Assembly (NCBI GenBank): GCA_965198125.1
Contig: CBDAOQ010000003.1
Location: forward strand, 439,890 to 503,889
Direction of reading: 5' to 3'
Source of the DNA: Candidatus Versatilivorator sp.
GTDB lineage: Bacteria; Acidobacteriota; Terriglobia; Versatilivoradales; Versatilivoraceae
DNA: 64,000 nucleotides
Below are positions 1,961 to 33,060 of the stretch, in pieces (the first letter of the stretch is position 1; every line of letters begins with the position of its first letter). The notes beneath the pieces were generated by a model, which was not told the DNA's origin, did no database searches, and was given only the letters and a program-made list of their open reading frames with translations. The translations under genes were made by a program, and so were the position numbers.

Positions 1961-4816
1961 TCAGCGGTAATCGACGGACACGGAACGCAGCACCGGGGCG
2001 CCCGTCCCGTTGGGGCCCACCAGCGTCGCCTTGAACTGCAGGAATCGGGTCGGGGTGTCCAGTCCTTTCAGCGAAAAACGGCGGCCGGCGTAGACGCTTC
2101 CCTCCCCTTCCGGCCCCCTCCACCCCGCCTGGCGGAGGGCTTCGATACTGTCGGCCCCTCTCACCTGGAACTCGACGGCCGAGGCGAAGGGCGTTTCCCC
2201 TTCCCAGCCGAGGGTCTCGAAGCGCACCGGAGCGCCGGCGTCGAAAACCTCTGAAACGTAGTCGTAGCGATCTCCCCGATCGGAGACGTGCCCCACATCC
2301 ACCCCGGCCAGGAAATGGGGCCCGAGTCCGGGCAGAAGCTGGCGCCTCTCGGGCGTGAAGCCCTGGGGGCCCCCCTCATAGAGAAAGGACAGGTTGCGGT
2401 GGGCGCCTCCCACCTTGTGGCAGGCGAACAGCAGATCGGTGACGCCGTCGTTGTTGAAATCGGCGGCCATCACGCCCGATCCCGACTGGGTGGGGATGTG
2501 GGTGACGCGGGACTCATCGAACCTGCCGGCGGCATTCCAGTAAATGTAGGAGGGGTGGGAGCGGGTCTCGCCCGCATGATAGCTGGTGGCCACGATATCC
2601 AGCAGGCCGTCCCCGTTCAGATCGGCCACGGCCACCCCTTCCGGTCCCATGGCGGGCAGCCGGGTCACCCGCTCCGCCTCATATCCCTCGGCCGCCCCCC
2701 AGTAGACCAGAACGTCGCTCTCCCGCCCCCCTTCGGCCGACATCAGGTTGGTCGCTAGCAGCTCCAGCCAGCCGTCCCCGTTGAGGTCGGCGATCTCGGT
2801 GGCCACCGCCAGGCCGGCGGGCAGGGTTTTCCTGTTGGCGTTGTCAAAACCGTCGGGTCCGTTCCAGAAGATCACCAGCTGGCGGTTTACCGTGGGGAAC
2901 ACCACGTCCAGCCAGCCGTCGCCGTTGAGGTCGGCAATGCTCTGGCAGCGGACACCCTCGACCTGAAAGGTGAAGCGATGGTTGCCGGCAAACCCCATGG
3001 GGCCGCCCCAGTAGAGGTCGGTCCCATGCCTGGCGGCATACTCGCTGAGAACCAGGTCCAGGTAGCCGTCTCGATTGAAGTCGGCCGCCCGGGTCGAAAA
3101 AGCCATCTCGGAGGAGACCACGGTCTTGCGGGTCGAGCTGAAGCCTTGCGGCGAACCCCAGTAGACTGCCGATTCCGGACCTCCCATGTAGATGTCCACC
3201 CACCCGTCGTTGTCGAGATCGGCGGAGGAGTACCCCTCCCCCGGAGAGCCGAAGGGGTGGTAGAGATCCAGGCGCTGGTCCACGCTGTATTTCCCCTGCT
3301 CGTTGCCCCAGTAGACGTAGGCCGGTACCGGGTCCCCGGCGGACCCGTCGATGCGATTCACAAAGACCAGGTCGGTCTTGCCGTCCCGATCGAAATCGGC
3401 GCTGCCGGCGCCGGCGGCCCCCAGGGTGGTCAATTCCAGTCGGCGGGCCGTGTCGAATCCCGCCGGACCTCCCCAGTAAACGTAGGAGGGCGCCTGGTAG
3501 GTGCGGGCATTGTGCTCATTGCTGAAGACCAGGTCGGGATGATCGTCCCCGTTCAGGTCCTGGATGAGAGAGTCGGTGGGATTCAGGGTGGGCAGGACGG
3601 TTCGGCGGTGAGGCTCGAATCCCTCGGGGCTGTTCCAGAAAATGGGCGAGCCGCTCCCCGGTCCGGGGGCGGCATGGCCGGATTTCTGGGGGCCGTTGGC
3701 GAAGACCAGATCAGGCAACCCATCCTTGTTGAGATCTCCCGCCGCCACGCTGCTGGCCGCCACCGTGGGCAGCTCCAGGCGGCGGTCGGCACTGTAGCCC
3801 TGGCTCGATCCCCAGTAGACGAAGGAAGGGATGGATTCGCTGTCGACGTCGGTATCCCACTCGCTGCGGTCTTCCGGTTCACGCATGAGCGGACGGTAGC
3901 GGTTGGCCAGAACGATCTCGGGGACGCGGTCGCCGTTGAGGTCGGCCAGGGCCACGGCCGAACTGCGCTGGCCGGGCAGCACGGTGCGCCGGTCTGCCGA
4001 GTAGCTCCCTCCCGAACCGCCCCAATAGATCATGGCGCCGCCGAGATTTGCGCCGCTGCCCTCGTTGGCAAAGACGATCTCGGGTGAGCCGTCCCGGTCG
4101 AGATCCGCGATGGCCACGTCGGTGGCCGCGGCGGTGGGCAGGGACTGCCGCCGCTCGATGGAAAACCCCTCCTTCGAACCCCAATAGAGAAAGGAAGCGT
4201 TCTCCGAACCGGAAGGCCGGCCGCCGGCCCCAGCGCTGTTGGCGAAGACGATCTCCGGGTAGCCGTCCCCATTGAGGTCGGCGACGGCAGCCGCCATGCC
4301 TCCCAGAGTCGGCAGCTCGGCTCGACGCTCGACGGCAAACCCCTGGGCGCCGCCCCAGTAGATGAAGCTGTCCAGGTTGCTCTTGATCCCGTTGCGTCCA
4401 TTGACCACCACCAGATCGGTGAAGCCGTCCCGGTTGAGATCTCCCAGGGCCTGGGCAACCCCGCCGTTGCTGGGAAGACGGGTGCGGCGGCCGACGTGGT
4501 TCTCGTCCACGCCCCAGTAGATGAAGAGATCGATCTGCTCGTTGTTGTCATGGGTGTTGGGCAGGACGATGTCGATGAAACCGTCCTGGTTGAGGTCCCA
4601 GAGGTTGATGAGCTTGACCTCCCCGGCGGCGGTGACGTAAGTATTGGCGCCGGCGTCGCCCAGGGTTCCCCGGCTGAAGTCCAGGAAACTGGAGACGGTC
4701 CAGCGCTTGGCGGCCTCGGTCTGCTGGGACGGGTATTGAGACCCTCCCCACACCAACAGACCACAGAAAATCGCAAGAGCCGAAATCATCATTCTGTTTG
4801 GTGTTGAAGCCATGCG
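1961..4816 (-). CDS. Secreted FG-GAP/VCBS-repeat protein (ASPIC/UnbV-like, CRTAC1-type)
   Basis: About 950 aa with more than 15 repeats of the DLNGDGxxDxV / YWGxxxGF pattern. N-terminal signal peptide (MMISALAIFCGLLVWG). Start taken at MASTPNR; the ORF extends to 4894. Confidence 0.8.
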   Translation of the reverse strand, partial: RMASTPNRMMISALAIFCGLLVWGGSQYPSQQTEAAKRWTVSSFLDFSRGTLGDAGANTYVTAAGEVKLINLWDLNQDGFIDIVLPNTHDNNEQIDLFIYWGVDENHVGRRTRLPSNGGVAQALGDLNRDGFTDLVVVNGRNGIKSNLDSFIYWGGAQGFAVERRAELPTLGGMAAAVADLNGDGYPEIVFANSAGAGGRPSGSENASFLYWGSKEGFSIERRQSLPTAAATDVAIADLDRDGSPEIVFANEGSGANLGGAMIYWGGSGGSYSADRRTVLPGQRSSAVALADLNGDRVPEIVLANRYRPLMREPEDRSEWDTDVDSESIPSFVYWGSSQGYSADRRLELPTVAASSVAAGDLNKDGLPDLVFANGPQKSGHAAPGPGSGSPIFWNSPEGFEPHRRTVLPTLNPTDSLIQDLNGDDHPDLVFSNEHNARTYQAPSYVYWGGPAGFDTARRLELTTLGAAGAGSADFDRDGKTDLVFVNRIDGSAGDPVPAYVYWGNEQGKYSVDQRLDLYHPFGSPGEGYSSADLDNDGWVDIYMGGPESAVYWGSPQGFSSTRKTVVSSEMAFSTRAADFNRDGYLDLVLSEYAARHGTDLYWGGPMGFAGNHRFTFQVEGVRCQSIADLNGDGWLDVVFPTVNRQLVIFWNGPDGFDNANRKTLPAGLAVATEIADLNGDGWLELLATNLMSAEGGRESDVLVYWGAAEGYEAERVTRLPAMGPEGVAVADLNGDGLLDIVATSYHAGETRSHPSYIYWNAAGRFDESRVTHIPTQSGSGVMAADFNNDGVTDLLFACHKVGGAHRNLSFLYEGGPQGFTPERRQLLPGLGPHFLAGVDVGHVSDRGDRYDYVSEVFDAGAPVRFETLGWEGETPFASAVEFQVRGADSIEALRQAGWRGPEGEGSVYAGRRFSLKGLDTPTRFLQFKATLVGPNGTGAPVLRSVSVDYR

Positions 4817-5281
4817 CTCTCTCCCTCCCGCAAACCGGGCAGACCCTGCCAACCTTGGCCTTGATTGAATTCTCGCAGAACCGGTCCCCGTCATTCAGAA
4901 GCAAGCCCTCCCTTTTGTCAATAGAGTTTCTTCGGGCGCAAGGTCGATCTGGTCAGTCGGCGTGGGGTCGAGGCGAGTTCCAACTATCTGCGCAGGAACA
5001 GCATCCTGCAGTCCGCCCAGGTGATCTATGGATCGTGACGCCCCACATATCGTGGACATCGTCAAAAAATCCTGTATATCCTGTCCATCCATGTAAATTA
5101 TCCCTGTAAGTCACCAAGCGTAGGTTCGCCCCCCACCGGCTCGACCGCTGGCTTCGCCCTTGTCTCGCCGACTCCCCCTCAAGGGGGGAGTGATTCTTGA
5201 GGCCTGCAAATGGCTTCTTGCCCGATTCCTCAGCAAGGTGTAAACCCTGTTTCCGGTTTATTGTGTGGATGAAGGCTTCCT

Positions 5282-5483
5282 GGGAGCGCGGGCGTCCCGC
5301 CCGCACAAGGCCTGGCACAGCCTCGGCCATCTCCTCCACCTGGATCGACCGGCAACGGCGCCACGGCTCTCCTTCGACCTGGACGTTGCGGTTCCCGCCA
5401 ACGTGGCGGCTGCCTGCAGAGTCGCGCGGAAGCTCAGCGGAAACCAATGGAACAGGATGCGGGCGGGACGCCCGCGCTCCCAG
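5282..5483. repeat. MITE family A copy (~200 bp) with 24 bp TIR GGGAGCGCGGGCGTCCCGCCCGCA
   Basis: Perfect TIRs at 5282-5305 and 5458-5483. The TIR contains the palindrome GCGGGCG-TCC-CGCCCGC. Homologous copies at 28084-28290, 34734-34934 and 8378-8552 (truncated). Confidence 0.75.
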
Positions 5484-5496
5484 GCCCTGTGCAATC

Positions 5497-6895
5497 CATA
5501 CATGGTTTACACAATAAACCGCAAACATGGTTGACACGGTTAGTTTTCTTTAAGTGGAGCTAAGCATACCTCCAAGGGGGTCGATGGGCAATGAGCGGGC
5601 GTTGTCCGGAGGGAGGGCGGAGCCCGACCGAAGGACAACGCCCAGGTTCATTCTCGCTGATGCCACTGCTGAGCAGGGATGATTTTCTGGGTACGCTGGT
5701 CGAACACGCCCAGAGGATGAGAGCTGTAGCGAATCTCCCAACGGTCATTGTCACAGGGAACCAGAGCAATCGTCTCCTTGGCCAGCACGGTGGAGAGATA
5801 GATCAGGCGGCCCCGCCACTTGAACTCGCCGGTGCGACGGACCCGCCGCACGGTGACACCGCTCGGGTATTCCACCTCCGGCAAGCGGTCCGGATAGGGA
5901 CGCGGCGAGGGCTGGTGCACGCTTGCGGGTGTCAGACGCCCCAGGGCTTCATGGGAACGCTGCCAGTTGAACTCTTCCACGAAGGCATCGAAGCGCCGCT
6001 GCTGGGCTGAAAGCGTGCGGGCAGGCGGACGCATCACGGCCTCTTTCAACGAGCGATGCATGCGTTCATGGCGACCGTTTTCACTGGGCTTGGCAGGACG
6101 AATGCGCTCGGGGCGAATGCCCAGGCGAATCCACCACTTCGACAACTGGCTCAGGCCGCCGGCAGCCACCGAGGCAAAGGGCGGGCCGTTGTCGGTGCGC
6201 AGCGTCTCAGGCAGGCCGTATTCCCGAAACACCCACTCAAACCAAGGCTTGACGGCATCGGTGGTGGGGTGGCTCAGGGCCCGGCACTGCAGGATGAAGC
6301 GGCTGTGGTTGTCGGTGAGGGTCAGCGGGTAGCAGCGCTTCCCGTTGGCCAGGGGTACGTCGCCCTTGAAGTCGGCGCTCCAGCTCTGTGCCGGAGCGTT
6401 GCAGTGGACCAAGGCCCGCGGATCCGGGGGAACGCGCCGACGCTGGCGTCTTTCCCGCACCAGATGGTTTCGCTTGAGGATCTTCCCGGCCGTGCTATCA
6501 GCCGGCCAGACCTCGTCCGGTTCCAGGGCACGAAGTCGATCCATCACCTTCTTGGGTCCAAAGCTCTGGTGCGCCAGCTTCGTCTCGATGATCCGCTCAA
6601 CCATCTCCGGTGCCGTCGTGTCGGGATGGCAACCGGGTCTTCGCGAGAGATCATCGAGTCCCTCCGGTCCGTGGATCCGATAGCGGTCGATCCACTTGTC
6701 GCCGGTGGGCCGGCTGATTCCGTAGTGTCTGCACAGGCCTTTCTTGGTGTAGCGACCACTGAGATAGTCGACAATAAACAGCATGCGTTGGTCCATGGTA
6801 CACGTCTCTTTCCAGGGCATCGGCTTGTCCTCCTCGGCCCATACCCTATCAATGTGTAAACCATGTTTGCGGTTTATTATGTAAAGGATGTTTGC
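5497..6895 (-). mobile_element. IS481-family insertion sequence (~1.4 kb) with ~31 bp TIRs
   Basis: TIR core TTTACA[C/T]AATAAACCGCAAACATGGTT[G/T]ACA at 5506-5536 and inverted at 6855-6885. Single DDE-transposase ORF between them. Exact termini uncertain by a few bp. Confidence 0.7.
5648..6828 (-). CDS. IS481-family DDE transposase (N-terminal HTH + integrase core rve domain)
   Basis: HTH segment GLCRHYGISRPTGDKWIDRY followed by an integrase-core region (…TDNGPPF…, …FNWQRSHEALG…). Single ORF, no frameshift. Start could be 6828 (MPWKE) or 6796 (MDQRM). Confidence 0.8.
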
Positions 6896-7163
6896 GGTCT
6901 GTACCGCCCAATCACTCCCCCCTTGAGGGGGAGTCGCAGAAGCCGAGCCGTCAGGCGAAGGCTGATGCGGTGGGGGGGACGCCGGGCAACCGCTTCTTTC
7001 CACACATCAAACTCGATGCAAAACCCCGACAGCGTAGTACTCGCCTTCCTATAACATCCCCGGACTCCCCCTCCTTGACTGCCCTTTGAGCGGACGACTA
7101 GAATCTCCGGGCAAGAAGTGTCCATCTCTTGATAACGGCACCACTGCCGCCAGGAGTCTCCCC

Positions 7164-8342: not shown

Positions 8343-8377
8343 GCGCCGGTCCCGCCGCCGGGACGGGTACACCTGGG

Positions 8378-8552
8378 AGCGCGGGCGTCCCGCCCGCACA
8401 AATCCTGGTATAGCCTCACCCATCTCCTCGACCCGGATCGAACGGCAACAGCGCCATGGCTCTGCTTCGGCCGGGCCCATGCGATTTCCACCGGCAGGAG
8501 GGGCGGGCTGCCGCATCGCAGGGAAACTGAGCGGCAACCCAAGGGACAGGAT
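8378..8552. repeat. MITE family A copy, 3'-truncated (left TIR only)
   Basis: Starts GGGAGCGCGGGCGTCCCGCCCGCA. The internal sequence is homologous to the copy at 34734-34934 in opposite orientation. It lacks the second TIR and is followed by a fragment related to family-B internal sequence. Confidence 0.6.
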
Positions 8553-8654
8553 TAATAGGACCAGAGGCCGCTGCACGCGACGCTGACTGGGAATCGGGGC
8601 GTTGGGCACAGCCAAGGCCCGCCACGGGGAAGATCAATCGAGAAGGATTATAAA

Positions 8655-8813
8655 TTGAACATGGATGCACAGGATGCACAGGATAATTAGGACCAGAGGC
8701 TGCTGCACGAAACGCTGACTCCGGCGATGATCGCGTGCGGATTTGCGGATGTCCAGGAATACAAGCCAGCCGTCTCCGGAAAAAATCCTGTGCATCCTGT
8801 GCATCCATGTGAA
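8655..8813. repeat. MITE family B copy (~160 bp) with TIR TTGAACATGGATGCACAGGATGCACAGGAT
   Basis: Inverted ends at 8655-8684 and 8784-8813. Family members at 34418-34576, 50599-50814, 50988-51152 and a partial at 63770-63850. Confidence 0.7.
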
Positions 8814-8855
8814 TCTACCCGGGCCGGAATGCAGGCGGCCAGCCGGTACAGCCGG

Positions 8856-9611
8856 CTATTCCGGCCTGACCGAGGCCACCCTGTTCAGGTAGGCACGGGC
8901 GGCCTCCTGAAGCCAGGCGTTGTAGTTGGTCAGGAAGAACCGCGCTCCCAAGTCGTAGTAGTGCTGCAGTTTGTCCTCATACCCCAGTGCGCCCGCCGTT
9001 CTTCCTGAAGCGACGATCTGTCGAATCGCTCCCTCGACCACTGCTTCCACCTTGGGGTCCCGGTGCTTGCCGGCCATGCCCATGGTCTGGGCCAGATCCC
9101 CGGGTGCGACGAAAAAGACATCGATGTGGTCGACCGACAGGATTTCGGCCAGATTCTCCACCGCCTGGATTTCCTCGATCAGGACGATGACCAGGGTTTC
9201 CAGATTGGCTTCCCCAAAAAAGTCCGAGCCGCCGTAGGACCTCCGGCCTGAAAAGATGCCCCGCCTGCCCACCGGCGCAAAAAAGGCCGATTCCACCACC
9301 CGCTCCGCCTCGGCCCTGGTGCTGACGTGAGGGACCACGATGCCGTTGGCGCCCAGGTCCAGGGTGCGTGTGATCACCCCGGGATCGTTGAGGTGCAGGC
9401 GGGCCACCGAGGCCATCCCCCACAGGTCGCAGGCCCGGGAGAGGTCGCCGATTTGGCTCCAGGTCACCGAACCGTGCTCCCCCTCCAGCCAGATCCCGTC
9501 AAAGCCCAGAGGACCCATAAAGTCGATGGTGTCGCTGGTATTGCTGTGTCCTCCGACGGCAATGGCCACGTCACCCTTGTTGAGCTTCTCCTTGACTCGA
9601 TTCCCTCGCAT
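8856..9611 (-). CDS. HpcH/HpaI-family aldolase (2-keto-3-deoxy-sugar-acid / 4-hydroxy-2-oxoacid aldolase)
   Basis: 251 aa with the LDLGANGIVVPHVSTRAEAE and LIEEIQAVENLAEILSVDHIDVFFVAPGDL motifs typical of the HpcH/HpaI family. A paralog lies at 61709-62482. Confidence 0.8.
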   Translation of the reverse strand: MRGNRVKEKLNKGDVAIAVGGHSNTSDTIDFMGPLGFDGIWLEGEHGSVTWSQIGDLSRACDLWGMASVARLHLNDPGVITRTLDLGANGIVVPHVSTRAEAERVVESAFFAPVGRRGIFSGRRSYGGSDFFGEANLETLVIVLIEEIQAVENLAEILSVDHIDVFFVAPGDLAQTMGMAGKHRDPKVEAVVEGAIRQIVASGRTAGALGYEDKLQHYYDLGARFFLTNYNAWLQEAARAYLNRVASVRPE

Positions 9612-10291
9612 GCTGTTGTCGTCTCCTTTGCCGGTGGATTGGACCTCCCCGGATGGATCTCTCCGGGGACGTTGTCAGCGACGGGGGCCCGGCGGCGCCG
9701 GAGATACCCGCCCCTTTCGGTTCACCCGAATGAACTGGCCCATGACCCTGCCGTTGGGGGCGTTCCCGTGAGTGGAGTTCACCACCGGAATCCGCCCGTC
9801 CGCCATTTCCTGCAGATTGGCCGCAAGACCCGAGCCGCTGGACCCTCCGATATGGCTGGGGAGACTCCAGTGGCGGCCGCGGTCCACGCTGGCGAAGATA
9901 CCCCAAGACCGCACCGCCAGCAACCAAACGTTTTTCCCGGGTCCGAAACGGGGCCGGAGCGCTGGCGCCGGATGAGAGACTCCTGCCTGCAGGAACTGTC
10001 TTCTACCCATCCACTGTCCCCGCTGCGACCGCCAAGGGTGTCCAAGGAAACATTCGACCGGGGCGTATTCGTCCCCGTCAGTGCCGTCGAGGCATCGACC
10101 CGCGATCCGTGCCTGCGGATCGGAGTTTGCGCCTTGACCCTGCAGGAGCTTTGTCATAGGCTCGTTTCCCGGATATTCCGTGATCAGGCCGTATCTTCAT
10201 TCTGATTCGCGCTGGTGGAAGCGGCCTCCAAGCTTGGAGGCTGCTGGCCCCTCTTTCCCCCTGGATGGCCCAGGCAAGAGGAACTTGCAGC

Positions 10292-11497
10292 ATGAACATC
10301 GACCGCAGAAAGTTTCTGAGTCAGTCTCTGGCAGCTTCCGCCGGCTTGGCAGGACTGCCTTCCCTGGCCGGCGGCCGCCCCTCCAAAGAGAGATATCGTG
10401 TCGGCATCATCGGTTGCGGCCGCATGGGACAGTACTTCGCCGAGGTCTATCGGGCGCTGCCCGACACCGAATTGGTCGCCATTGCCGAGTGGAATCCGGA
10501 ACGGCGCAAGGTTGTGGGAGAACGCTTCGGAGTCAAGGCGCTCTTTAAGGATGTCAACGCCATGCTGAAGGAAGTCGTTCCCGACCTGGCGGCGATCATC
10601 ACGCCCAGCAAGTATATGAAGGAAGCCGTCATCGCCTGTGCCGAAGCCGGGGTCAAGGGTGTTTCCACCGACAAACCCGTGGCCGCCAGGCTGGCTGATG
10701 CCGACGCCATGGTCGAAGCCTGTCGGAAACGGGGAGTCGTTTTTGCAGGCGGCAATCTGCAGCGCGCCATGCCCGAGGTTCAGGAAGCCGGCCAACGCTT
10801 GAACGCGGGTCGATACGGCCAGCCCCTGGGAATGGCCGTGCACGGATTCGGCGGCGAGATCTCCGGCGGCGGTTGTCAGCACATTTCCGTGCTGCGCCTG
10901 TTTGCCGGCGCCGAGGTCGAAGAGGTCATGGCATGGGCCGGGCCTGCGGAGGCCCTCGAGCAGAAAGACGACAAGGGCCTCAACGTCAATGCCCTGTTCC
11001 GAATGAGCCGCGGGCCCGATGTTCAGGTTTTCGGCCTCACCCAACCCTACGGGACCCGGCAGCTCAGCGGGGTGGACGTGTGGAGTGAGGACACCCTGGT
11101 CCGCTGGAAGTGGTCGAAGCCCGAAATCTATCAGGGGACCGGCGGCGGCGGTTCCCGGCGTCTCGTTGACGCAGAGTATCGCCCCTTCTCCTGGCGCCGC
11201 ATCCTGGATGAGGTTCCCGGTCTGCGAAAGAATGACAACTACCTGGTGGCCTCCATCCGTTCCTTTGTGGATGCCGTCGGAAGCGGGAGCGAACTGTGGA
11301 TCTCGGGCCATGACCTCAGGCAGGCTCTCGAGGTGGCCATTGCCTGCAAGGTATCGGCTCTGCAAGGCAATCGTCCCGTCAAGCTCCCTCTGAAGGACCG
11401 ATCCCTGGCGTTGTATCCGAGGCCCTACCGCTGGCTGGGGGGAGACGCCACCGAAAACCCGCAATCGCTTGAAGACGCGGCAGGGGACCCCCTGTGA
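10292..11497 (+). CDS. Gfo/Idh/MocA-family NAD(P)-dependent oxidoreductase with twin-arginine signal peptide
   Basis: MNIDRRKFLSQSLAASAGLAG Tat motif, then the Rossmann segment YRVGIIGCGRMGQYFAEVY. First gene of a co-directional cluster. Confidence 0.8.
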   Translation: MNIDRRKFLSQSLAASAGLAGLPSLAGGRPSKERYRVGIIGCGRMGQYFAEVYRALPDTELVAIAEWNPERRKVVGERFGVKALFKDVNAMLKEVVPDLAAIITPSKYMKEAVIACAEAGVKGVSTDKPVAARLADADAMVEACRKRGVVFAGGNLQRAMPEVQEAGQRLNAGRYGQPLGMAVHGFGGEISGGGCQHISVLRLFAGAEVEEVMAWAGPAEALEQKDDKGLNVNALFRMSRGPDVQVFGLTQPYGTRQLSGVDVWSEDTLVRWKWSKPEIYQGTGGGGSRRLVDAEYRPFSWRRILDEVPGLRKNDNYLVASIRSFVDAVGSGSELWISGHDLRQALEVAIACKVSALQGNRPVKLPLKDRSLALYPRPYRWLGGDATENPQSLEDAAGDPL

Positions 11498-13068
11498 AAC
11501 CTTCTCTGAATCGCCGACAATTCCTGGGCGGAGCCGCCCTGGCGGCCCCCGGCCTGCTGGCCCCCAGCGGGACCGCGGCGGCGGCGCGGCCGCAATCCAC
11601 ACCAAAGCGGGCATCCAGGCCGCGCCGCACCATGTATTTCAATGACGCCCGCCACTACTACCTCTACGCCTTCGAGCCGCCCATGACCATGGAGGACGCC
11701 TGGCGCCCGGTGGACGAACTGGTGGAGACTTCGGTCGACACCCTGATCTACGGCGTGGAAACCGGGGGCGGACTGTTCAGCCACACCAAGGTGGGCGTGC
11801 GGGCCATGTCGCAGACGCGCCCCATCGACAGCGCCCATTACTGGCGGGCCTGGTACAACATGCAGAGCCTGATCGACCGGGGGCTGGACCCCTTGCAGGT
11901 GCTGATCGACCGGGCCCACCAGCGCCAATTGGACTTCATCATCAGCATGCGCATGGGCGGCGCACCCAGGGACCCTCGCTATGTCATCGGCACATCCGGA
12001 CCGGCCGCCGGAGGCGGAGGCCGCCTGGAGAACAATATGGACTTCGCCCATCCCTGGGTCCGGGACACTCAGTTCTCCTGGATGGAAGAACTGGCAAGCT
12101 ACCCGGCCGAAGGCATCGAATTCGATTTCGCCTTCACTCCCTACTATTTCAAGCCGAGCGAGGTCGAACGGCACACACCCCTGATGACTGCCTACGTGCG
12201 CCGGCTGTCGGAGATGATTCGAAGCAAGGGCCAGAACCGGATCGTGGGCGCCCGGGTCTTTCCGACCGAGGCCATGAATCGATCTCTGGGCCTGGACGTA
12301 AAGACCTGGGTTGAAGAGAAACTGGTCGACTACCTGGCGCCTCTCTACTACGGATACTTCCTGCTGGATCCCAATCTGCCTTTCGAGTCGCTGGTCGAAT
12401 TGGCCCGGCCGGCCGGAGCCGAGGTCTTCCCTGTCCTGCAGCCTTACTTCATGCAACACGAGAAGCATGCCAGCTCGGCCATGCTGCGGGCGGCCATCGC
12501 CAACTATTGGGCCAAGGGGGCGGACGGCCTGATTGTGGCTCCCTGGTTCACCTGGCCCTTCCGGGAGGAGGAACGGGCGCTGCTGACCGACATCGGCGAC
12601 CCCGAGGCCGTCAAGGAACGCACCAAGCACCACTTTGTCTCCCCACGGCAGGAGGATGCCGCCGCCCTGGGTTACGATCACCCGCTTCCCCTGCAGTTGG
12701 AGGGCAAGAGCCCCCTGAGTTCATCCGTTCCCTTTTATATCGCGGACGACTGCCGGTCGGACCGGGTGGCGCGAACGAGGCTGCTGTTGCGAGTGCGGAA
12801 CCTGGTGACCGCCGACAACCTGGAGTTGAGCCTCAACGGGAGTTCGCTGGCTGGGGAGCCCATGCGGCGCACCAGCCACCGCTACGACTTCCAATGGCTG
12901 GAGTACACCCTGAGCAAGGTGCTTCCCCGCCCCGGAGAGAACGTGCTGTCTGCCCGTCTGGCCTCGCGGCCGGAGGGACTGGGCGGAGGGGTCACCATTG
13001 ACCAGATGGAGGTGCTGGTCGAATACGCCGGCCCCCAGTCCATATCCGACCGACCCGATGTGTTGTAG
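11494..13068 (+). CDS. Tat-signal TIM-barrel glycoside-hydrolase-like protein, paralog 1 (family unassigned)
   Basis: RRQFLGGAALAAPG Tat motif. Conserved paralog motifs include DGIEFDFAFTPYYF (candidate catalytic Glu). The GTG start overlaps the upstream stop by 4 bp. Confidence 0.7.
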   Translation: MKPSLNRRQFLGGAALAAPGLLAPSGTAAAARPQSTPKRASRPRRTMYFNDARHYYLYAFEPPMTMEDAWRPVDELVETSVDTLIYGVETGGGLFSHTKVGVRAMSQTRPIDSAHYWRAWYNMQSLIDRGLDPLQVLIDRAHQRQLDFIISMRMGGAPRDPRYVIGTSGPAAGGGGRLENNMDFAHPWVRDTQFSWMEELASYPAEGIEFDFAFTPYYFKPSEVERHTPLMTAYVRRLSEMIRSKGQNRIVGARVFPTEAMNRSLGLDVKTWVEEKLVDYLAPLYYGYFLLDPNLPFESLVELARPAGAEVFPVLQPYFMQHEKHASSAMLRAAIANYWAKGADGLIVAPWFTWPFREEERALLTDIGDPEAVKERTKHHFVSPRQEDAAALGYDHPLPLQLEGKSPLSSSVPFYIADDCRSDRVARTRLLLRVRNLVTADNLELSLNGSSLAGEPMRRTSHRYDFQWLEYTLSKVLPRPGENVLSARLASRPEGLGGGVTIDQMEVLVEYAGPQSISDRPDVL

Positions 13069-13069
13069 A

Positions 13070-13105
13070 GGGACAGGATGCGGGCGGGACGCCCGCGCTC
13101 CCAGG
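13070..13105. repeat. Solo terminal repeat of MITE family A
   Basis: GGACAGGATGCGGGCGGGACGCCCGCGCTCCCAGG immediately after the stop of paralog 1. No second TIR nearby. Confidence 0.6.
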
Positions 13106-13204
13106 TGATCCCGTCCCGCCGGTTCCAGCGGATCCGCATGCAGTCGTTGGGACGTGAATAGCTGCACGACGAATCTTGCAAAAGGCTCAAAGGAGTGAAT
13201 CACA

Positions 13205-14905
13205 ATGCGACGACGAAACTTCCTCTCAAGAACCCTTGCCGGCGCCGCCTCCCTGGGGCTTTTGGGCGCCAATAAGGCGGCGGCCGGGCCGGCCCCCCAG
13301 CCGGCAACCGCCGGCTCATCCGGCCGAAAGCCCACCATGATGTTCTACCACGACGGGCGTCACCCCCTCATCTACATGTACGAACCTCCCATGCGGAAGG
13401 AAGAGTACGAGACGGCCGTCGACGAGCTGCTGGGAACCCCCATCGAAGCCATCATGTTCACCATGGGAGACGGACGGACGGTGCTGCACGACACCCGGGT
13501 GGGCGAGCTGTGGGGACACAACGTCAAGAAGTGGCCGCACCTGATCTTCCGGCGGGCCCACCAGAACGCCCGGGCGCTCATCGATGCCGGACACGATCCG
13601 CTGAGCGTCGTTTGCGAACGGGCCAGGGCAAAGGGAATGCTGATCTACCCGGTCCTGCTGGTTCAGCAAGGCAGCGGCAAGCGGGGAGAGGACACTCGAG
13701 GCTCGGATTTTCGATTCGATAACACTCATCTGGAGATAGGGGCCGGCGGCGGGGTCGATCCCGAGTTCCCGGGCATCCACGGCCTGGACTTCAAGCACGA
13801 AGACGTGCGCAACGAGCGGTTCGCCCTGGTGGAGGAAACCGTGAACCGCTATCCGGTGGACGGCTTCGAGCTTCAGCTCGACTACATGCCCTACTATTTC
13901 CGGCCGGACGAAGTGGACGCGGGGCGCCCCATCATGACCGAGTGGATCGCCCGGGTCCATCGCGCCGTCAAGCAGAGCGGCGCCCAGCGGGAGCTGGCCA
14001 TCCGCATTCCCACCAGCCTCGAGGGTTGCCATTCGGTGGGGCTCGACGTCCGCGAATGGATCCGTCAGGGCATCGTGGACGTGCTCATCGGCCAGAACTT
14101 CTCGGGTCCCGAGCTGGTGGACCAGAACGCCGACTTCCGGCCCCTGGTGGCAGCCGCCAAGGGGGCGCCGTGCCGGGTCCACGCGGCCATCCACAGCCAT
14201 ATCGACTCCGATCGGCTGGGCGAGGCCACCGTCAAGATGATTCGGGCCGCGGCCTGCAACTACTGGGACCAGGGCGTCGACGGGCTCTACCTGGCCCATT
14301 GGTTCAGCAACTGGCCCTACGAGGGAGATTTCTACGAGAAACTGCGCGAGCTCCCCTATCCCGAGGTGATGGCCCCCAAGGACAAGACCTACTTCGTGAC
14401 CACCATGACCGGCCGTTACCCCAGGCCTTCCACCGAGCCCGGGCTCGCCATGCAGTTGCCGGCCGACTTGAAGGTCAACCAGCCGGTCAAGGTGGAGATG
14501 TCGGTCAGCGACGATCTGCTCCGCTGGCACAAGGACGGCCGGGTCCATGAAGTCCTCTTGCGGGCCAGAATGATCAATTCGACCGAGCTGGACCGGTTCA
14601 GCGTCCGCCTGAACGGCAAGGCCCTTCCCGAATCCGGCTTGCGCAAGATCAATCAGCTCTACCGCATGGTGGCGCCGCGCTACCGGGTCAACAACTGCTA
14701 CTGGCACATCTACCGGCTGGACCGCAGCCATTGGCCGCGCAAGGGGAGCAACACCGTGGAAATCACCCTGACCCGGCGGGACCCCGACATCACTCCCCAG
14801 ATCTTCCTGAGAGACCTGGAGCTGGACATCAAGTACCTGATGGGCAAGAACTTTCACCGAGGACAGGACCCGGACCTGGGTGAAGTCCAGTCCCTGACCG
14901 ACTGA
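13205..14905 (+). CDS. Tat-signal TIM-barrel glycoside-hydrolase-like protein, paralog 2
   Basis: MRRRNFLSRTLAGAAS Tat motif. Motifs FYHDGRHPLIYMYEPPM, DGFELQLDYMPYYF and VDGLYLAHWFSNWPY are shared with paralog 3 (about 75% identical by eye). Confidence 0.75.
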   Translation: MRRRNFLSRTLAGAASLGLLGANKAAAGPAPQPATAGSSGRKPTMMFYHDGRHPLIYMYEPPMRKEEYETAVDELLGTPIEAIMFTMGDGRTVLHDTRVGELWGHNVKKWPHLIFRRAHQNARALIDAGHDPLSVVCERARAKGMLIYPVLLVQQGSGKRGEDTRGSDFRFDNTHLEIGAGGGVDPEFPGIHGLDFKHEDVRNERFALVEETVNRYPVDGFELQLDYMPYYFRPDEVDAGRPIMTEWIARVHRAVKQSGAQRELAIRIPTSLEGCHSVGLDVREWIRQGIVDVLIGQNFSGPELVDQNADFRPLVAAAKGAPCRVHAAIHSHIDSDRLGEATVKMIRAAACNYWDQGVDGLYLAHWFSNWPYEGDFYEKLRELPYPEVMAPKDKTYFVTTMTGRYPRPSTEPGLAMQLPADLKVNQPVKVEMSVSDDLLRWHKDGRVHEVLLRARMINSTELDRFSVRLNGKALPESGLRKINQLYRMVAPRYRVNNCYWHIYRLDRSHWPRKGSNTVEITLTRRDPDITPQIFLRDLELDIKYLMGKNFHRGQDPDLGEVQSLTD

Positions 14906-14954
14906 GGCCCCCAATTCCCTCGAGTCCTGATACCCCGGGGTGGTGAAGCAAACT

Positions 14955-16649
14955 ATGAAACGGCGCCGCTTCTTCCAGACTGCCGCGACGGCCGCCCTCG
15001 CCGGTGGGTTGCGCCCTGCTTCCTTGCAAGCGCGGCAGGCGGGAGCCTCCCCTTCGGCTGCCGGCGGGGCAGCCCGCAAGCCCCGCATCATGTTCTACCA
15101 CGACGGCCGTCATCCCCTGATCTACATGTACGAGCCCCCCATGCAAAAGGAGGAGTTTCATTCGGCCGTGGACGAGTTGCTGGGGACCCCGGTGGAAGCC
15201 CTGATGTTCACCATGGGCGACGGCCGCACGGTGTTGCACGACACCCGGGTGGGCGAGCTCTGGGGAGACCACCTCAGGAACAAGAAGTGGCCCCACCTCA
15301 TCTTCCGCCGCGCCTACCAGAACGCCAAGGGCCTGATCCAGGCCGGCCAGGACCCGCTCCGTGTCGTCTTTGACCGGGCCCACCGGCGGGGGATGCTGGT
15401 CTACCCGGTGCTGCTGGTTCAGCAGGGAACCGGAAAGCGCGGGGAGGACACCCGCGCCTCGGAGTTCCGCCTCAACCACCGCCACCTGGAAATCGGCGCC
15501 GGGGGCGGAGTGGATCCGGCCTTCCCCGGTTTCCACGGCCTGGACTTCAAGCACGAGGCGGTGCGCCGGGAGCGGTTCGCCCTGATCGAAGAAACGATCC
15601 GGCGCTACCCGGTGGACGGCTTCGAGCTGCAGCTCAACTACATGCCCTACTACTTCCGGCCCGACGAGGTCGAGCCCGGACGCCGGATCATGACCGAGTG
15701 GATCCGTCGGGTTTACCGGGCGGTGAAGCGAAGCGGGGATGGGCGGGAACTGGTTCTGCGAGTACCGGCCAGCCTGGAGCAGTGTGAATCGGTGGGGCTG
15801 GACATCCGGGAATGGCTGCGGCAAGGCATGGTGGACGTGCTTATCCCGCAGGGGCCCGGCCGCTTCGATCAGATGCTGGACCTGGGGCCGATGGTGTCGG
15901 CGGCGCGAGGGTCCGGCTGCCGCATTCACGGCTACCTTCCCAGCACCGTGGATTCCGACCGCCTGATGGAGTCCACCCTCCCCATCACCCGGGCAGGCGC
16001 CTGCAATCTGTGGGACCAGGGGGTGGACGGGCTCTACGTGGCCCAGTGGTTCAGCACCTGGCCTTACGGGAGCTCCTTCTACGAGAGGTTGCGGGAGCTG
16101 CCCCATCCCGAAGTCATGGCTCCCCGGGACAAGCACTATTTCCTGCAGACGACAACGGGACGCTACCCCGACCGGGCCGGGCGGCAGCTTCCGGCGGAAC
16201 TGGAAGTCAACACGCCGGTGAGCCTGGAATTCAAGATCAGCGACGAACTGCCGCGTTGGGCCAAAACGGGGAGAGTTCACCAGGTCCTCTTGCGGATCCG
16301 GCTGTCCAATACCACCGAGCTGGACCGCATCGCCTTCCGGCTGAACGGAAAGCCCCTCCCCGATTCGAGGTTGCGCAAGATCAACGAAATGTTTAAGCTC
16401 AAGATTCCGCGCTTCTTCCAGTTCGGTTACTGGTACGTTTACAAGCTGGACCCGGACCACTGGCCAATCAGGGGCCTTAACCGCCTGGAGGTGGAACTGA
16501 AGCACCGGGACCCGGAGGTCACGCCTCGGATCGCCGTCAGCAACCTGGAGTTGAAGATCGAATACCTGCTGGGAAAGCACATGCGGCGGGACTCGGAGAC
16601 GGACCTGGGGGCTCGGGAGAGCCGCAACGACAGACATGGAAACGCATGA
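14955..16649 (+). CDS. Tat-signal TIM-barrel glycoside-hydrolase-like protein, paralog 3
   Basis: MKRRRFFQTAATAALAGG Tat motif. Near-duplicate of paralog 2 (same motifs). Confidence 0.75.
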   Translation: MKRRRFFQTAATAALAGGLRPASLQARQAGASPSAAGGAARKPRIMFYHDGRHPLIYMYEPPMQKEEFHSAVDELLGTPVEALMFTMGDGRTVLHDTRVGELWGDHLRNKKWPHLIFRRAYQNAKGLIQAGQDPLRVVFDRAHRRGMLVYPVLLVQQGTGKRGEDTRASEFRLNHRHLEIGAGGGVDPAFPGFHGLDFKHEAVRRERFALIEETIRRYPVDGFELQLNYMPYYFRPDEVEPGRRIMTEWIRRVYRAVKRSGDGRELVLRVPASLEQCESVGLDIREWLRQGMVDVLIPQGPGRFDQMLDLGPMVSAARGSGCRIHGYLPSTVDSDRLMESTLPITRAGACNLWDQGVDGLYVAQWFSTWPYGSSFYERLRELPHPEVMAPRDKHYFLQTTTGRYPDRAGRQLPAELEVNTPVSLEFKISDELPRWAKTGRVHQVLLRIRLSNTTELDRIAFRLNGKPLPDSRLRKINEMFKLKIPRFFQFGYWYVYKLDPDHWPIRGLNRLEVELKHRDPEVTPRIAVSNLELKIEYLLGKHMRRDSETDLGARESRNDRHGNA

Positions 16650-18419: not shown

Positions 18420-19799
18420 ATGATCCATCGCCGTCGTTTATTGAAGACCGCCGCCCTGGGAGCGGGGCTGGCTCCTTTTTCTCTTTCCCTGCTGGCCGAA
18501 GCTCGGGGAAGGATGAAAATCGTCGAGATCGAGGAGCACGAAGTGGTTGCTCCCTATCACGACTACAACGCCGAGGCGCTCTTTCGGTATCACGGACTCT
18601 CCTTGCAGAGACGTGTCATCTACGTGGTCAAGACCGACCTGGGACTGGAGGGTTACGGAGAGAGCGGCGGTCCGCTGCGGAAGGGACGGTACAAGGACTA
18701 CCTGGGCACCGATCCGTTCGACTGGATGGCCGACACCCGGAACCTGCCCATGAACATGGCCGTCTACGACCTCATGGGGAAATTTCTGGGTCTGCCCGCC
18801 TGGAAGCTGCTGGGACCCAAGGTGCGCTCCTGGATACCGGTGGCGGCCTGGACCGTCTCCCGGCCCCCGGAAGAAATGGCGGAGGAAGTGCTTGACGTAT
18901 CCCGGCGGGGCTACCACTGGCTCAAATACCACGTGGATGTGCTGCAGAACGCCATCGATCAGACCGAGGCCATGCAGAAGGTCGCTCCCGCCGGATTCAA
19001 GATTCACTATGACTTCAACGAGGACTCCAATTTCGAAGCGGTCTACCCGGTGTTGCGGGAACTGGAAAAATTTCCCGTCGCCGGACGGATCGAGGATCCC
19101 ATCCGTTCCGAAGATCGCGACGGCTATCGTCTGCTGCGGGAGAAGTGCTCCATCCCCATCCTCATTCACCACGGCCCCCACGACGTCTTCATGAGACACG
19201 GCCTCTGCGACGGGTTCATGGGTGGACATGCCCCGGTGGGCCACGCCATGAAGCTGTCGGCCATGGCGGAGTCGACCAATACGCCTTTCATGCTCCAGCA
19301 GACGGGCGGCATCATCAACCAGGCCTTCCTGGCCCATGAAGTGGCCGTGTTTCCCATGGCCGTCCTGGACCACGTCAACGGGTGCCATCTCTGGAAGGAG
19401 CAGGTGACGCGCGAGGACATGCCCGTAGTGGGGGGAAGCGTCGCGCTCCCGGAAGGACCCGGGCTGGGGATCAGCCTTGACCGGGAGAAACTGAAGCGCC
19501 TGGCGGAAGCCCCGCGGCCCAAACAAACCCGTTTCCTGGTGCGTGTCCGCTATGAAGACGGCCTCAGCATCTACTTCCGGTTCGATCCCGATCTTCCCGG
19601 CGCCAACGTGAGATTCCTCAATCCCCCCGGATTCGGGCAACGATACACGGGCTACGGACCGGATGTCCCTGGACCGGTTCCGGGTTATGCCAATCCGGTG
19701 GTCAGCGACTTCTGGGACGAAACCGGCTCCGCGGAATTCGAGGCCATGTGGGAACGCACGGCCGAAGGCCCGGTCTGGGAGCAATCGGGCAAGCCCTGA
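18420..19799 (+). CDS. Enolase-superfamily (mandelate racemase / muconate lactonizing enzyme-like) protein with Tat-type N-terminal extension, paralog 1
   Basis: MIHRRRLLKTAALGAGLAPF Tat-like leader. MR/MLE barrel motifs follow (KIHYDFNEDSNFEAV; AGRIEDPI; LIHHG). An internal Met (MKIVEIEEHE) offers an alternative cytoplasmic start. Confidence 0.75.
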   Translation: MIHRRRLLKTAALGAGLAPFSLSLLAEARGRMKIVEIEEHEVVAPYHDYNAEALFRYHGLSLQRRVIYVVKTDLGLEGYGESGGPLRKGRYKDYLGTDPFDWMADTRNLPMNMAVYDLMGKFLGLPAWKLLGPKVRSWIPVAAWTVSRPPEEMAEEVLDVSRRGYHWLKYHVDVLQNAIDQTEAMQKVAPAGFKIHYDFNEDSNFEAVYPVLRELEKFPVAGRIEDPIRSEDRDGYRLLREKCSIPILIHHGPHDVFMRHGLCDGFMGGHAPVGHAMKLSAMAESTNTPFMLQQTGGIINQAFLAHEVAVFPMAVLDHVNGCHLWKEQVTREDMPVVGGSVALPEGPGLGISLDREKLKRLAEAPRPKQTRFLVRVRYEDGLSIYFRFDPDLPGANVRFLNPPGFGQRYTGYGPDVPGPVPGYANPVVSDFWDETGSAEFEAMWERTAEGPVWEQSGKP

Positions 19800-19837
19800 C
19801 CGATGCGGCCAGAGGATTCAATTCAAGAGGAGATGCC

Positions 19838-21504
19838 ATGAGACGAAGACGGTTCCTCAAGACAGTCGGCGGCAGCCTGTTGGCCGCCCCCTGGATGGGA
19901 GGCTTGGCCTCGCCCTTTCCGAATCCAGGCTGGAGCCAACCCCTTCCTGCCGGCCATAAAGTCCGCCGCATGCTGTCCAACCACGACGGCGCCATCATGG
20001 GGAGCGACCCTCCGCTCACCGCCGAGCACTTCCGCCAGGTGGTCAGGAGCTACCAGGGAACCCCGGTAGACACCATCTGCTTTTGTCTGGGCGACCGCGA
20101 GGTCTACCACTACGAGACCGAAGTCGCCGAGGTTATCGGCCGCCGGCACGGAACCTTCAAGAGCGACTGGGACTGGCGCGTCTATGAGAATACCCGGCGG
20201 CTCATTGAATCGGGCAAGGGCCCCCTGGCCACCTTTGCCGAGGTGTGCCGGGAGGAAGGCATGGGCCTGTTCGGCTCCTTCCGAATGAACAGCCACTACG
20301 GCGTGGATCCCGCCTCCCCCCACCATAGCGAGTTCCGGCTCAAGCACCCCCAATGGCTGATCGGGCACCCCGCCGGCTATTCCAAGGAGAGCAAGGAATT
20401 TGGAATCCGAATGGGCTTGAACTACGCCATCCCGGAAGTTCGCGAGCACATGGCGGCCACCATCACGGAGGTCTTCACCCGATTCCGGGTGGACGGCGTG
20501 GAACTGGACTTCATGCGGCACCCGGCCTTTTTCAAGCTGCACGAAGCGGTGGAGAATCACCACCACATGACCGACATGCTGCGGCACATCAAACGGCGGA
20601 GGGACGAGGTCAGCCGGGAGACCGACCGGAAGATCGAACTGGCGATGCGGGTGCCGCCGACCTTCGCCGATGCCTGCGGGTGGGACTGGACGTGCGTACC
20701 TGGATGCGGGAGGGCCTGGTGGACCTTCTCATCGCGGGAGGCGGGTTCATTCCCTTCGACATGCCCTTCGAGTCGTTCGTGGAGGCGGCCCGCGGCACCG
20801 AATGCCGGGTCTTGGGCGGACTGGAGCTGCTCCGCTACATGAGCGGACCCACTGCCGACCTGGACATCACTCGAGCCATCGCCATGCGTTTCTGGCAGGG
20901 TGGGGCCGACGGACTTCAGTTGTTCAACTATTTCGCCCAACCGACGGATTGGAAGCGGCAATTGTTCCAGGAAATCGGCGACCCTGAGCGGCTGTCCTCT
21001 CTGGACAAACGCTACCAGATGGACAAGCGGCGCTGGTTCCCCGGCGGATGGAACAACCACGGCGCCGCCTTTTCATCGGCGGTGCCGGCGGTGCAGCTCC
21101 CGGTAGACCTCACCGAGACGCCGCCCGGAGGCGGCCCCCGCCTGCGATTCAGGATTTCCGATGACCTGGAATCGGCCACGCGCAAGGGCATCCTGGACAG
21201 CGTCATACTGCGGCTGCTGTTCGAGAACCGCACTCTCCAGGACCAGGTCGAGGTCCATCTCAACGGGGAACGCCTGCCCGACAAGCAGCCCGGCACCTTC
21301 GACCTGGTCTCCTACTGGAACAGGACTCGCGGTCCTTACCGGGGAGAGTATCTGACGGGGACCCTGGAATACGACGTCGCCTGCCCGCCCCTGAAACAGG
21401 GAATCAACGTCATCCAGGTTCGACTGGTGAAACGCACCCCCAACCTGACCGCGCCCCTGAGACTGGGCCTGGTGGAGGCGTCGGTCAACTACAAGTCCGG
21501 TTGA
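19838..21504 (+). pseudogene. Tat-signal TIM-barrel glycoside-hydrolase-like protein, paralog 4, interrupted by a single-base frameshift near 20665-20690
   Basis: The N-terminal part (19838-20842 frame, DGVELDFMRHPAFF) and the C-terminal part (20353-21504 frame, …GLDVRTWMREGLVDLLIAGG…, ADGLQLFNYF) align end-to-end with the other paralogs. The frame switches at the GGG run in gcctgcgggtgggactgg. Either a true pseudogene or an indel error. Confidence 0.65.
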
Positions 21505-21523
21505 TCGGGGAATAGGAGACGTC

Positions 21524-22910: not shown

Positions 22911-23055
22911 TGGAGAGTGAAGAGTGGTCAGCCGAGGGCTTCGGGAACAGGCAAGCGCCTGATGACCTGACTTATTTGAAGGACTGCGCCGAGACCGACG
23001 AGATGCTTTGCGTGTCGATCAAATAGCTCTTCACTCTTCACTCTCCACTCTCCAC
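22911..23055. repeat. MITE family E copy (~145 bp) with TIR GTGGAGAGTGAAGAGTGG
   Basis: Ends at 22911-22928 and, inverted, at 23027-23055. A partial reverse copy lies at 51322-51447. Confidence 0.6.
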
Positions 23056-23139
23056 TATTCACTTTTCACCTAGGCGCGCCGCCGTCCCATACGACGGGGC
23101 GGCTCATACGGGCGAAACCGGGGTGCTCCAGGAAAGTGG

Positions 23140-27947: not shown

Positions 27948-28378
27948 CTCGACTGCGGGCTCCGCCCTCTCGCCGACTCCCCCTCAAGGGGGGAGTGATT
28001 CTTGAGCACTGAACCAAGCTTCTTGCCCGATTCCTTGGCATGATGTAAACCATGTTCCCGGTCTTATGTGTGGTCGAACGCTTCCTGGGAGCGCGGGCGT
28101 CCCGCCCGCACAATGACTGGCACGGCCTCGGGAATCTCCTCCACCTGGATCGACCGGCAGCGGCGCCCTGGCTCTCCTTCGTCCTGGCCGTTGTGGTTAC
28201 TGCCGACGTAGTGGCTGCCTGCAAAGCCGCGCGGAAACTCAGCGACCACCATAAGCAACAGCATGCGGGCGGGACGCCCGCGCTCCCAGGAGATGCCCAT
28301 CACTCCCCCCTGGAGAGGGAGTCGCAGAAGCCGAGCCGCCAGGCGAAGGCTGATGCGGTGGGGGGTGGACGCCGGGCC
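27948..28378. repeat. Composite MITE-like element D copy 2 (the IS-free 'empty' form) containing a nested MITE-A copy (28084-28290)
   Basis: Same ~70 bp ends as 5135-6985. Internal solo IS-TIR-like TGTAAACCATGTTCCCGGTCTTATGTGTGG, then a complete family-A element. No transposase. Confidence 0.65.
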
Positions 28379-33051: not shown

Positions 33052-33060
33052 CCCCGGCAA

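Follow-up and report, generated by a model that had tools for sequence, protein, structure and literature searches.

An IS481-like insertion sequence beside the hairpin of a palindromic repeat in Candidatus Versatilivorator, and the probable history of a nested locus

The stretch analyzed here, referred to as the window, comprises 64,000 nt of a Candidatus Versatilivorator sp. genome (Acidobacteriota; contig CBDAOQ010000003.1) and contains two copies of a repeat termed D. Both copies carry a transposable element of the miniature inverted-repeat kind (MITE), called MITE-A, and one of them additionally harbors a complete insertion sequence (IS) of the IS481 type. Such a nested arrangement raises the question of how it was built up and of whether D is a by-product of the IS or a place to which the IS is directed. 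Taken as a whole, the explanation that we consider probable is a stack of four events on a palindromic repeat, combined with hairpin-guided targeting by the IS481-like element. As a nested repeat the region is ordinary; what makes it interesting is the rule of targeting, together with a repeat that is shared across phyla.

The insertion sequence within the first copy of D

Gapped global alignment showed that copy 1 of D (5124-5484 plus 6908-6986) is collinear with copy 2 (27932-28290 plus 28296-28376) across the insertion point, with 86-95% identity per block, and that a segment of ~1.42 kb is present in copy 1 only. This segment is an intact IS481-like IS of 1418 bp (5488-6905, minus strand), which agrees with an earlier sequence-only reading of the window that had described a complete IS481-family element of ~1.4 kb with one HTH-rve transposase. 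Its distal tip, TGTGCAATCC, starts at 5488 and its transposase-proximal tip, GGTACAGACC on the minus strand, at 6905, where the IS end reads GGTCTGTACC. These ends were set by comparison with L001 and with L198-L202 and L217-L220 (nine copies of at least 97.7% nucleotide identity) as well as with the tips found family-wide. The IS is flanked by a target-site duplication (TSD) of the sequence GCCC (5484-5487 on the left, 6906-6909 on the right), the first base of the left duplication being the last base of a terminal inverted repeat (TIR) of MITE-A, and copy 2 has a single GCCC (28295-28298). The IS-free copy 2 had been proposed as an empty site. It does place the junction and the duplication, but it is a paralogue that differs by 5-14% and not an allelic empty site, so that it shows where the IS inserted and not when.

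Toward the IS ends, 5497-5537 and 6854-6894 form an inverted repeat of 41 nt (88%), the tips being less alike, and each end contains two direct subterminal repeats of ~19 nt (AACCGCAAACATGGTTTACA-like). The inverted repeat that had previously been taken as the core of the IS ends is real, but it is subterminal, represents the inner one of the two ~19-nt repeats and lies 9-17 nt inside the true tips. One tip of the window IS is TGTGCA and the other ...TGTACC, with a duplication of 4 bp; distant relatives have symmetric tips of the form GGTACA(A/G)ACCGG ... TGCACA or TGTACC and duplications of 3-5 bp.

Copy 1 of D, as delimited by alignment and repeat search, spans 5124-6986. Its left arm (5124-5194, plus strand) has an outer part starting with CCCCCCACCG at 5129 and the hairpin core GACTCCCCCTCAAGGGGGGAGTGAT at 5170-5194, and its right arm (6911-6986, minus strand) has the core at 6911-6935 and an outer part reaching to CGGTGGGGGG at 6968-6977. 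The inner parts, CGACTCCCCCTCAAGGGGGGAGTGATT (5169-5195) and AATCACTCCCCCCTTGAGGGGGAGTCG (6910-6936), are complementary at 27/27 positions, and imperfect complementarity reaches ~70 nt outward, to 5129 and 6977, respectively; the imperfect TIRs of ~70 bp reported earlier for a twice-occurring D are hence true inverted repeats. Each 27-mer holds a hairpin with an 8-bp stem (DNA folding of -9 kcal/mol), and only four such D-type hairpins exist in the window. The palindrome center (5195-5213, plus strand), starting with TCTTGAGGCCTGCAAAT, is also present in the short form of the D family described below. Copy 2 (27932-28376, plus strand) has its arms at 27937-27999 and 28299-28365. Minus its inserts, D has a length of ~255 bp and is a non-coding, multi-copy sequence with TIRs. 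Scans of the whole window against Rfam (gathering thresholds) and for tRNA and tmRNA yielded no match, indicating that D and MITE-A are not known RNA families.

The transposase gene (5648-6820, minus strand) is a single open reading frame (ORF) coding for 390 aa, with the Shine-Dalgarno sequence GAGGAGG upstream. Its product contains the Pfam domains HTH_28, HTH_32, LZ_Tnp_IS481 (33.3 bits vs. a cut-off of 22.2), rve and rve_3, and the best NCBIfam model was IS481 (NF033577; 206.6 bits), with IS3 next (102.5 bits). A DDE triad (D150, D210, E252) is invariant in 12 homologues of 61-86% identity, and so is much of a C-terminal region of ~90 aa. In a sequence search of the PDB, nothing but retroviral integrase cores was matched, and these weakly, so that no close relative has a solved structure. 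L001, a copy with unrelated surroundings on a metagenome contig, encodes an identical protein, and its IS is 99.6% identical over 1418-1419 nt, which argues for a recent insertion in the window. At 90% identity, the transposase cluster comprises 231 member sequences. The triad, the L001 copy and the size of this cluster suggest an intact and active IS lineage.

Some further features of the IS and its relatives were observed. The 110 nt of non-coding DNA between the transposase stop and the distal inverted repeat (5538-5647) contain a hairpin with an 11-bp stem (GGGCGTTGTCC ... GGACAACGCCC) and also a short segment, CCTCCAAGGGGG, which is similar to the target hairpin and missing from the 71%-identical lineage. 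In L001, a different long palindrome (GTGGAGGGAGCGACCCCCCC...GGGGGGGTCGCTCCCTCCAC; 1990-2330) is situated ~85 nt from the IS tip. An 89.7%-identical relative is present twice (L221 and L222) on contig ctg822584 of ENA ERZ25067264 (50.8 kb, labeled circular, 226x), which also encodes a MobA/MobL relaxase; neither copy is adjacent to a hairpin. A circular MobA/MobL plasmid of this kind is a possible vehicle for the spread of the IS.

Insertion sites relative to hairpins

In the window, the proximal IS tip is located 8 nt from the stem base of the right hairpin, the sequence reading ...GGGGGGAGT, GATT, GGGC and then, from the IS tip on, GGTACAG.... Ten distinct sites are occupied by near-identical IS copies (at least 97.7% nucleotide identity), and at eight of them a D-type hairpin is found at a distance of 6-9 nt, namely at those in the window, L199, L200, L201, L202, L217, L219 and L198/L218, the last two loci being counted once as they look orthologous. 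At these eight sites the GGTACA (proximal) end always points toward the stem, either side of the hairpin is used, and the TSDs are GCCC, ACCC, CAGA, GAA, TAA and, three times, AGA. Given only four D-type hairpins per 64 kb, the chance expectation for such a result should be far below 1%.

Related lineages were found next to hairpins of other sequences. In the P0049 group (71% aa identity), all four contexts are 7-8 nt after CCCTCTCCC-NNN-GGGAGAGGG, and in the P0042 group (76% aa identity) four out of five follow CCCCCC..GGGGGG hairpins. A metagenome scan with the transposase returned only relatives of at most 68% aa identity, from which 80 loci were kept and combined with the near-identical and related copies into a family-wide set with relatives of 43-100% aa identity. 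In 39 of 59 independent proximal flanks there was a perfect stem with 6 bp or more whose end was 4-12 nt away from the IS tip, with a stem-to-tip gap of 7-9 nt in 30 of these 39 (mode 8), and the tip facing the stem was always the transposase-proximal one. Shuffled flanks contained such a stem in 0.93 of 61 cases (maximum 4) and flanks beyond the distal tip in 2 of 18. Similarly, 76% of the 33-nt proximal flanks fold at -10 kcal/mol or better, compared with 24% at 60 nt further out and 20% of the shuffles. The stems themselves vary by lineage, e.g., GGCAGGCG..CGCCTGCC, CCCACAGC..GCTGTGGG and GAACAGCC..GGCTGTTC. As a query for distal ends, the reverse-complemented proximal tip frequently led to the inner subterminal repeat, and a search for the tip plus TSD was used in its place, which gave 19 distal ends vs. 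2.5 expected by chance. The P0008/P0011 lineage (L203-L207), in which the proximal tip is replaced and the copies are decayed, was left uncounted.

Position and orientation are thus biased over many independent insertions, and this bias is probably due to target choice by the transposase. According to the mechanism proposed here, the transposase of this IS481-like subgroup would select its targets by a GC-rich hairpin or palindrome and would join the proximal IS end in a single orientation, ~8 nt (6-9 nt) past the 3′ stem base, generating a duplication of 3-4 bp. As the stem is palindromic, either of its sides would be usable.

Apart from this, it was observed that most of the distant relatives (L213-L216 and many of L118-L197) target CCCTCTCCC-NNN-GGGAGAGGG (TTAGGGTGAGGG or TGGCCGAAGGCCGGGTGAGGG). 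This repeat recurs in unrelated metagenomes, and the IS splits it at ...GG/GTG/AGGG or ...CC/GAA/GG.

Internal remnant, MITE-A and distribution of D

The long form of D contains an extra ~77 nt whose homologue is the final 77 nt of the IS, beginning with the tip GGTACC... and extending inward as far as the ribosome-binding site. In copy 1 this remnant (5214-5278, plus strand) corresponds to the transposase-proximal end of an IS of the kind seen in the window, and its tip is truncated by MITE-A; in copy 2 it is found at ~28044-28083. The solo motif resembling an IS end, TGTAAACCCTGTTTCCGGT, which had been noticed in both copies before, forms part of it (5239-5257 and 28044-28062). The remnant stops 3-5 nt short of the right hairpin. 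In L100 it is intact, with 52/52 terminal nt identical to the window IS tip, and the full IS in the window occupies the very spot where the L100 remnant ends. Judged by sequence, D is best described as a palindrome with a one-ended IS scar and not as an IS-derived MITE, and the scar probably originated from an insertion followed by a deletion. In L090, truncated solo IS tips adjoin hairpins, which indicates that insertion and subsequent loss recur.

MITE-A has a length of 206 bp in copy 1 (5279-5484, plus strand) and is bounded by perfect TIRs of 27 bp (5279-5305 and 5458-5484); its nesting in both D copies was recognized in the sequence-only reading, where its TIRs had been given as 24 bp. 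In copy 2 it occupies the same position (28084-28290), and the IS is found in copy 1 alone, in accordance with the proposed nesting order of D, then MITE-A, then the IS. A third copy is located at 34721-34926 and a fourth, split one at 8372-8552 and 13070-13105. Each TIR holds a hairpin with a 7-bp stem, exact TIR matches in the window number eight vs. 0 expected, and no target duplication was evident at the four sites. In both D copies of the window, MITE-A sits inside the IS scar. MITE-A copies also occur in related genomes, and as the composite of D and MITE-A is present in L078, L066, L117 and L218, it must predate the divergence of the two window copies. The halves of the split copy are ~4.5 kb apart (8553-13069), and a direct repeat of 10 bp, GGGACAGGAT, marks both boundaries of this interval (8543-8552 and 13070-13079). 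Within it are long ORFs of the size of ordinary genes, one of them ending exactly at the junction, as well as another repeat family, and the split copy is situated in the loop of a palindrome with a 13-bp stem (CCGCCGGGACGGG / CCCGTCCCGCCGG).

An exact-match scan with the 25-nt hairpin core of D (23 specified bases; one genome per species) yielded at least 174 matches in at least 116 loci (L002-L117). The metagenome-assembled genomes (MAGs) with an identical core are labeled as belonging to at least seven phyla, the carriers by label being Acidobacteriota, Nitrospirota, Nitrospinota, Gemmatimonadota, Latescibacterota, Binatia, Gamma- and Alphaproteobacteria, and Opitutia. They include Ca. Versatilivorator (Acidobacteriota), which is the closest relative of the window among the matches listed, with 88% identity in coding DNA. 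Many of these MAGs are chromosome-level assemblies with multiple matches each, some having many copies per chromosome, and bin contamination is therefore no explanation for the spread of D. Labels and names alone suggest that most of the carriers come from sponge microbiomes. A single match was observed in a lake Rickettsiales MAG.

Of the at least 174 matches, 160 had enough flank to be anchored. On one side, ~42 nt are conserved up to CCCCCC(A/T)CCG, and on the other side conservation ends at once. Two arm types, equivalent to the left and right arms of D, recur across taxa, agreeing with the window arm at 52-72 of 77 positions. Most commonly they form a palindrome of 165-190 bp with the order arm, hairpin, ~27-nt center, hairpin and arm (L006, L024, L029, L077), and these short forms contain no IS sequence; solo arms and tail-to-tail arms are present too. 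Adjacent plus/minus core pairs are spaced 25-150 nt apart in 25 of 30 cases. Long forms lacking both MITE-A and the IS were found in L100, L054 (four copies), L111, L109, L051, L013, L083, L086 and L115. In related genomes at least 12 long-form copies exist, mainly in Acidobacteriota, with one weaker match (L103) in a Binatia MAG. An alignment of 27 copies revealed an additional conserved extension of ~25 nt on the left side of Acidobacteriota copies. Lineage specificity, as expected of a population of doublets of repetitive extragenic palindromic (REP) sequences, called REPINs, was not seen for the D core. In the literature, no report was found of the D palindrome, also when searched for by its hairpin sequence, or of relevant MITEs or REPINs from sponge symbionts. 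An identical 25-nt core together with related 70-nt arms across many labeled phyla is a sign that DNA is exchanged inside a single habitat.

Copy 1 of D is located in a 2.2 kb intergenic gap between two divergent genes, coding for an FG-GAP repeat protein (1961-4894, minus strand) and a GNAT acetyltransferase (from 7086, plus strand). Next to D and MITE-A, the window contains another repeat family of ~170-200 bp with the motif TCCTGTGCATCCTGTGCATCCATGT (5064-5098, 8618-8815, 34438-34609, 50598-50639, 50678-50813, 50989-51150 and 63811-63845). One member of this family is the immediate left neighbor of D copy 1, and in L111 the motif likewise adjoins a D copy. Tandem arrays of the heptamer CACTCT[TC] are present at 23027-23069 and 51374-51458, and tandemly duplicated stretches with 70-82% identity at 12098-15688, 18692-22893 and 31707-36141, with spacings of 1750, 3110 and 3600 bp.

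History of the stack, its alternatives and known systems

The order of events that appears most plausible starts with a palindromic MITE- or REPIN-like repeat, consisting of two inverted arms of ~70 nt ending in hairpins with 8-bp stems, which would have come to lie at two intergenic sites. In an ancestor of the long D lineage, an IS481-like element would then have inserted beside the right hairpin and later been deleted save for its terminal ~77 nt, a piece that comprises the proximal inverted repeat along with the 5′ leader as far as the ribosome-binding site. Into this remnant MITE-A would have inserted, and the composite would have multiplied. In a recent last step, this IS would have inserted once more, from a live copy, into copy 1 at the identical position next to the hairpin, with GCCC being duplicated. 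Read this way, the locus illustrates how repeat-rich intergenic DNA of symbiont genomes is built up, with a palindromic pad being hit, scarred and hit again, and it would be wrong to call such stacks IS-derived MITEs.

Several observations weigh against this explanation. The targeting is a preference and not absolute: among the near-identical copies, L001 and L220 (the latter within a sulfatase gene) are not adjacent to a hairpin, and the same applies to the 89.7%-identical lineage with its three copies, of which two are plasmid-borne. L198 and L218 may represent a single ancestral insertion in two strains. A perfect stem is missing in 20 of the 59 relatives, several of which have imperfect stems, and the distal control is small (n = 18), automatic location of distal ends being poor. 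Only surviving insertions are visible, and selection against insertions in genes inflates the intergenic share. The assignment of the transposase itself is affected by the fact that its IS481 score of 206.6 bits is below the curated cut-off of 224. What the transposase would recognize may be structure or sequence, as the data fit both readings alike. With regard to D, neither a target duplication nor sharp ends were found in the alignment of 27 copies with flanks, and its mobility is suggested by copy number and distribution. A search for arms in D configuration 0.4-5 kb apart, in 8-kb samples of the genomes, led to three candidate partner loci (L039, L010 and L099; arm spacing of 1.5-2.4 kb), but no autonomous partner emerged, since the ORFs within these loci, inspected by eye, include no evident transposase.

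Other explanations have to be measured against the same data. Random insertion, with the association to D merely reflecting the survival of copies in harmless intergenic repeats, gains from the fact that assemblies show only fixed or surviving insertions and that L220, as a near-identical copy within a gene, attests to the use of other sites. Selection, however, would explain neither the fixed distance of 6-9 nt from the stem nor the constant orientation with the proximal end toward the hairpin, and it would also not lead to the same geometry with different hairpins down to 43% aa identity, which makes this scenario unlikely. The sequence-only reading had offered two views of D, the first being that of a non-autonomous deletion derivative (MITE) of the IS, mobilized by its transposase. 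Although the homology of ~77 nt in D to the transposase-proximal end of the IS could be seen in this light, D has one IS end only, and this is internal; its termini, the hairpin arms of ~70 nt, show no similarity to the IS tips, and genomes labeled as many phyla contain the palindrome with no IS sequence at all. A derivation from the IS is consequently very improbable. The second view, of D as a preferred landing pad, is by contrast strongly supported by the independent insertions elsewhere.

It could further be argued that the IS entered copy 1 through homologous recombination or gene conversion at the resident solo IS end, for which the homologous sequence in D would be a possible substrate. 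This hardly agrees with the perfect 4-bp duplication GCCC around the IS, with a solo end that is still present 215 bp away and separated by MITE-A, with homology at one end only and with target duplications at other D-resident IS copies, so that we regard such an entry as extremely improbable. Finally, as most copies have a hairpin near one particular IS end and at an equal distance from it, the hairpin might be part of the mobile unit and the true IS end might lie beyond it. The target duplication, though, sits between hairpin and IS tip, spacer and loop sequences vary among copies with an identical IS, and the interrupted repeat continues in register past the distal tip, e.g., ...TTAGG[GTG]-IS-[GTG]AGGG. 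These features identify the hairpin as target and not as cargo, and the idea of a larger mobile unit is left with next to no probability.

Returning to hairpin-guided targeting as the preferred explanation, a wider version of it is possible but tentative. In this version, a large and hitherto unnoticed IS481-like subgroup would read hairpins instead of a sequence word and keep its proximal end at an offset of ~8 nt whatever the stem, each lineage would use the REP-like repeats resident in its host as safe harbors, and the harbor studied here, itself a palindromic element, would have spread over at least seven phyla in sponge communities. If true, hairpin-offset, oriented targeting in an rve/DDE family outside IS3 would represent a natural and compact case of structure- or palindrome-guided integration.

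In comparison with known systems, the short form of D resembles REPINs and MITEs such as Correia elements in being an inverted doublet of a GC-rich palindrome that is extragenic, multi-copy and foldable into a long hairpin. A REPIN population is normally confined to one lineage and depends on a resident REP-associated tyrosine transposase (RAYT; PMC3116915, PMC5581495), whereas the D core is identical in at least seven labeled phyla and no RAYT turned up, an association with RAYTs not having been specifically tested.

The IS itself is similar to IS481 of Bordetella pertussis and its family with respect to the best-scoring model, the single-ORF transposase with an N-terminal HTH and the leucine-zipper domain, the lack of a programmed frameshift, the presence of TIRs and the length of ~1.4 kb (~1-1.5 kb in the family). 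Members of this family usually have the tips TGT...ACA and target duplications of 4-15 bp, and IS481 proper targets the short palindrome NCTAGN. By comparison, the IS described here has the tips GGTACA...TGCACA/TGTACC, a duplication of 3-4 bp, a target in the neighborhood of hairpins and a score below the model cut-off.

Insertion into REP sequences has been established for IS1397 and ISKpn1 (IS3 family) and for IS621 (IS110 family), and genome surveys infer it for members of IS3, IS110, IS4, IS5 and IS256, IS481 not being among them (PMC1525189). A literature search, not covering ISfinder and TnPedia, found no report of REP, palindrome or stem-loop targeting for IS481-like elements. For the IS110 members IS621, ISPpu9, ISPpu10 and ISPa11, all or nearly all copies occupy a defined REP position (PMC1525189, PMC12288879), and the enzymes of this family, which are DEDD recombinases, rely on a bridge RNA for guidance (PMC11208160). 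While IS110 elements have no typical inverted repeats or target duplications, the IS in question has inverted repeats, a DDE rve core and duplications of 3-4 bp. With IS1397 and ISKpn1, whose specificity is attributed to the transposase itself (PMC1525189), it shares a DDE (rve) transposase related to IS3, the location of most copies in or beside extragenic palindromes and a duplication of 3-4 bp. It differs from these two elements by its single IS481-type ORF, by inserting ~8 nt outside the stem and by its fixed orientation. IS1397 and ISKpn1 have two frameshifted ORFs and insert into the palindrome loop, their targets being the palindromic units (REP) of enterobacterial BIMEs. The IS of this locus would accordingly be a palindrome-targeting IS and as such of a known kind, with its offset of ~8 nt outside the stem, its fixed orientation and its widely shared landing pad as particular traits.

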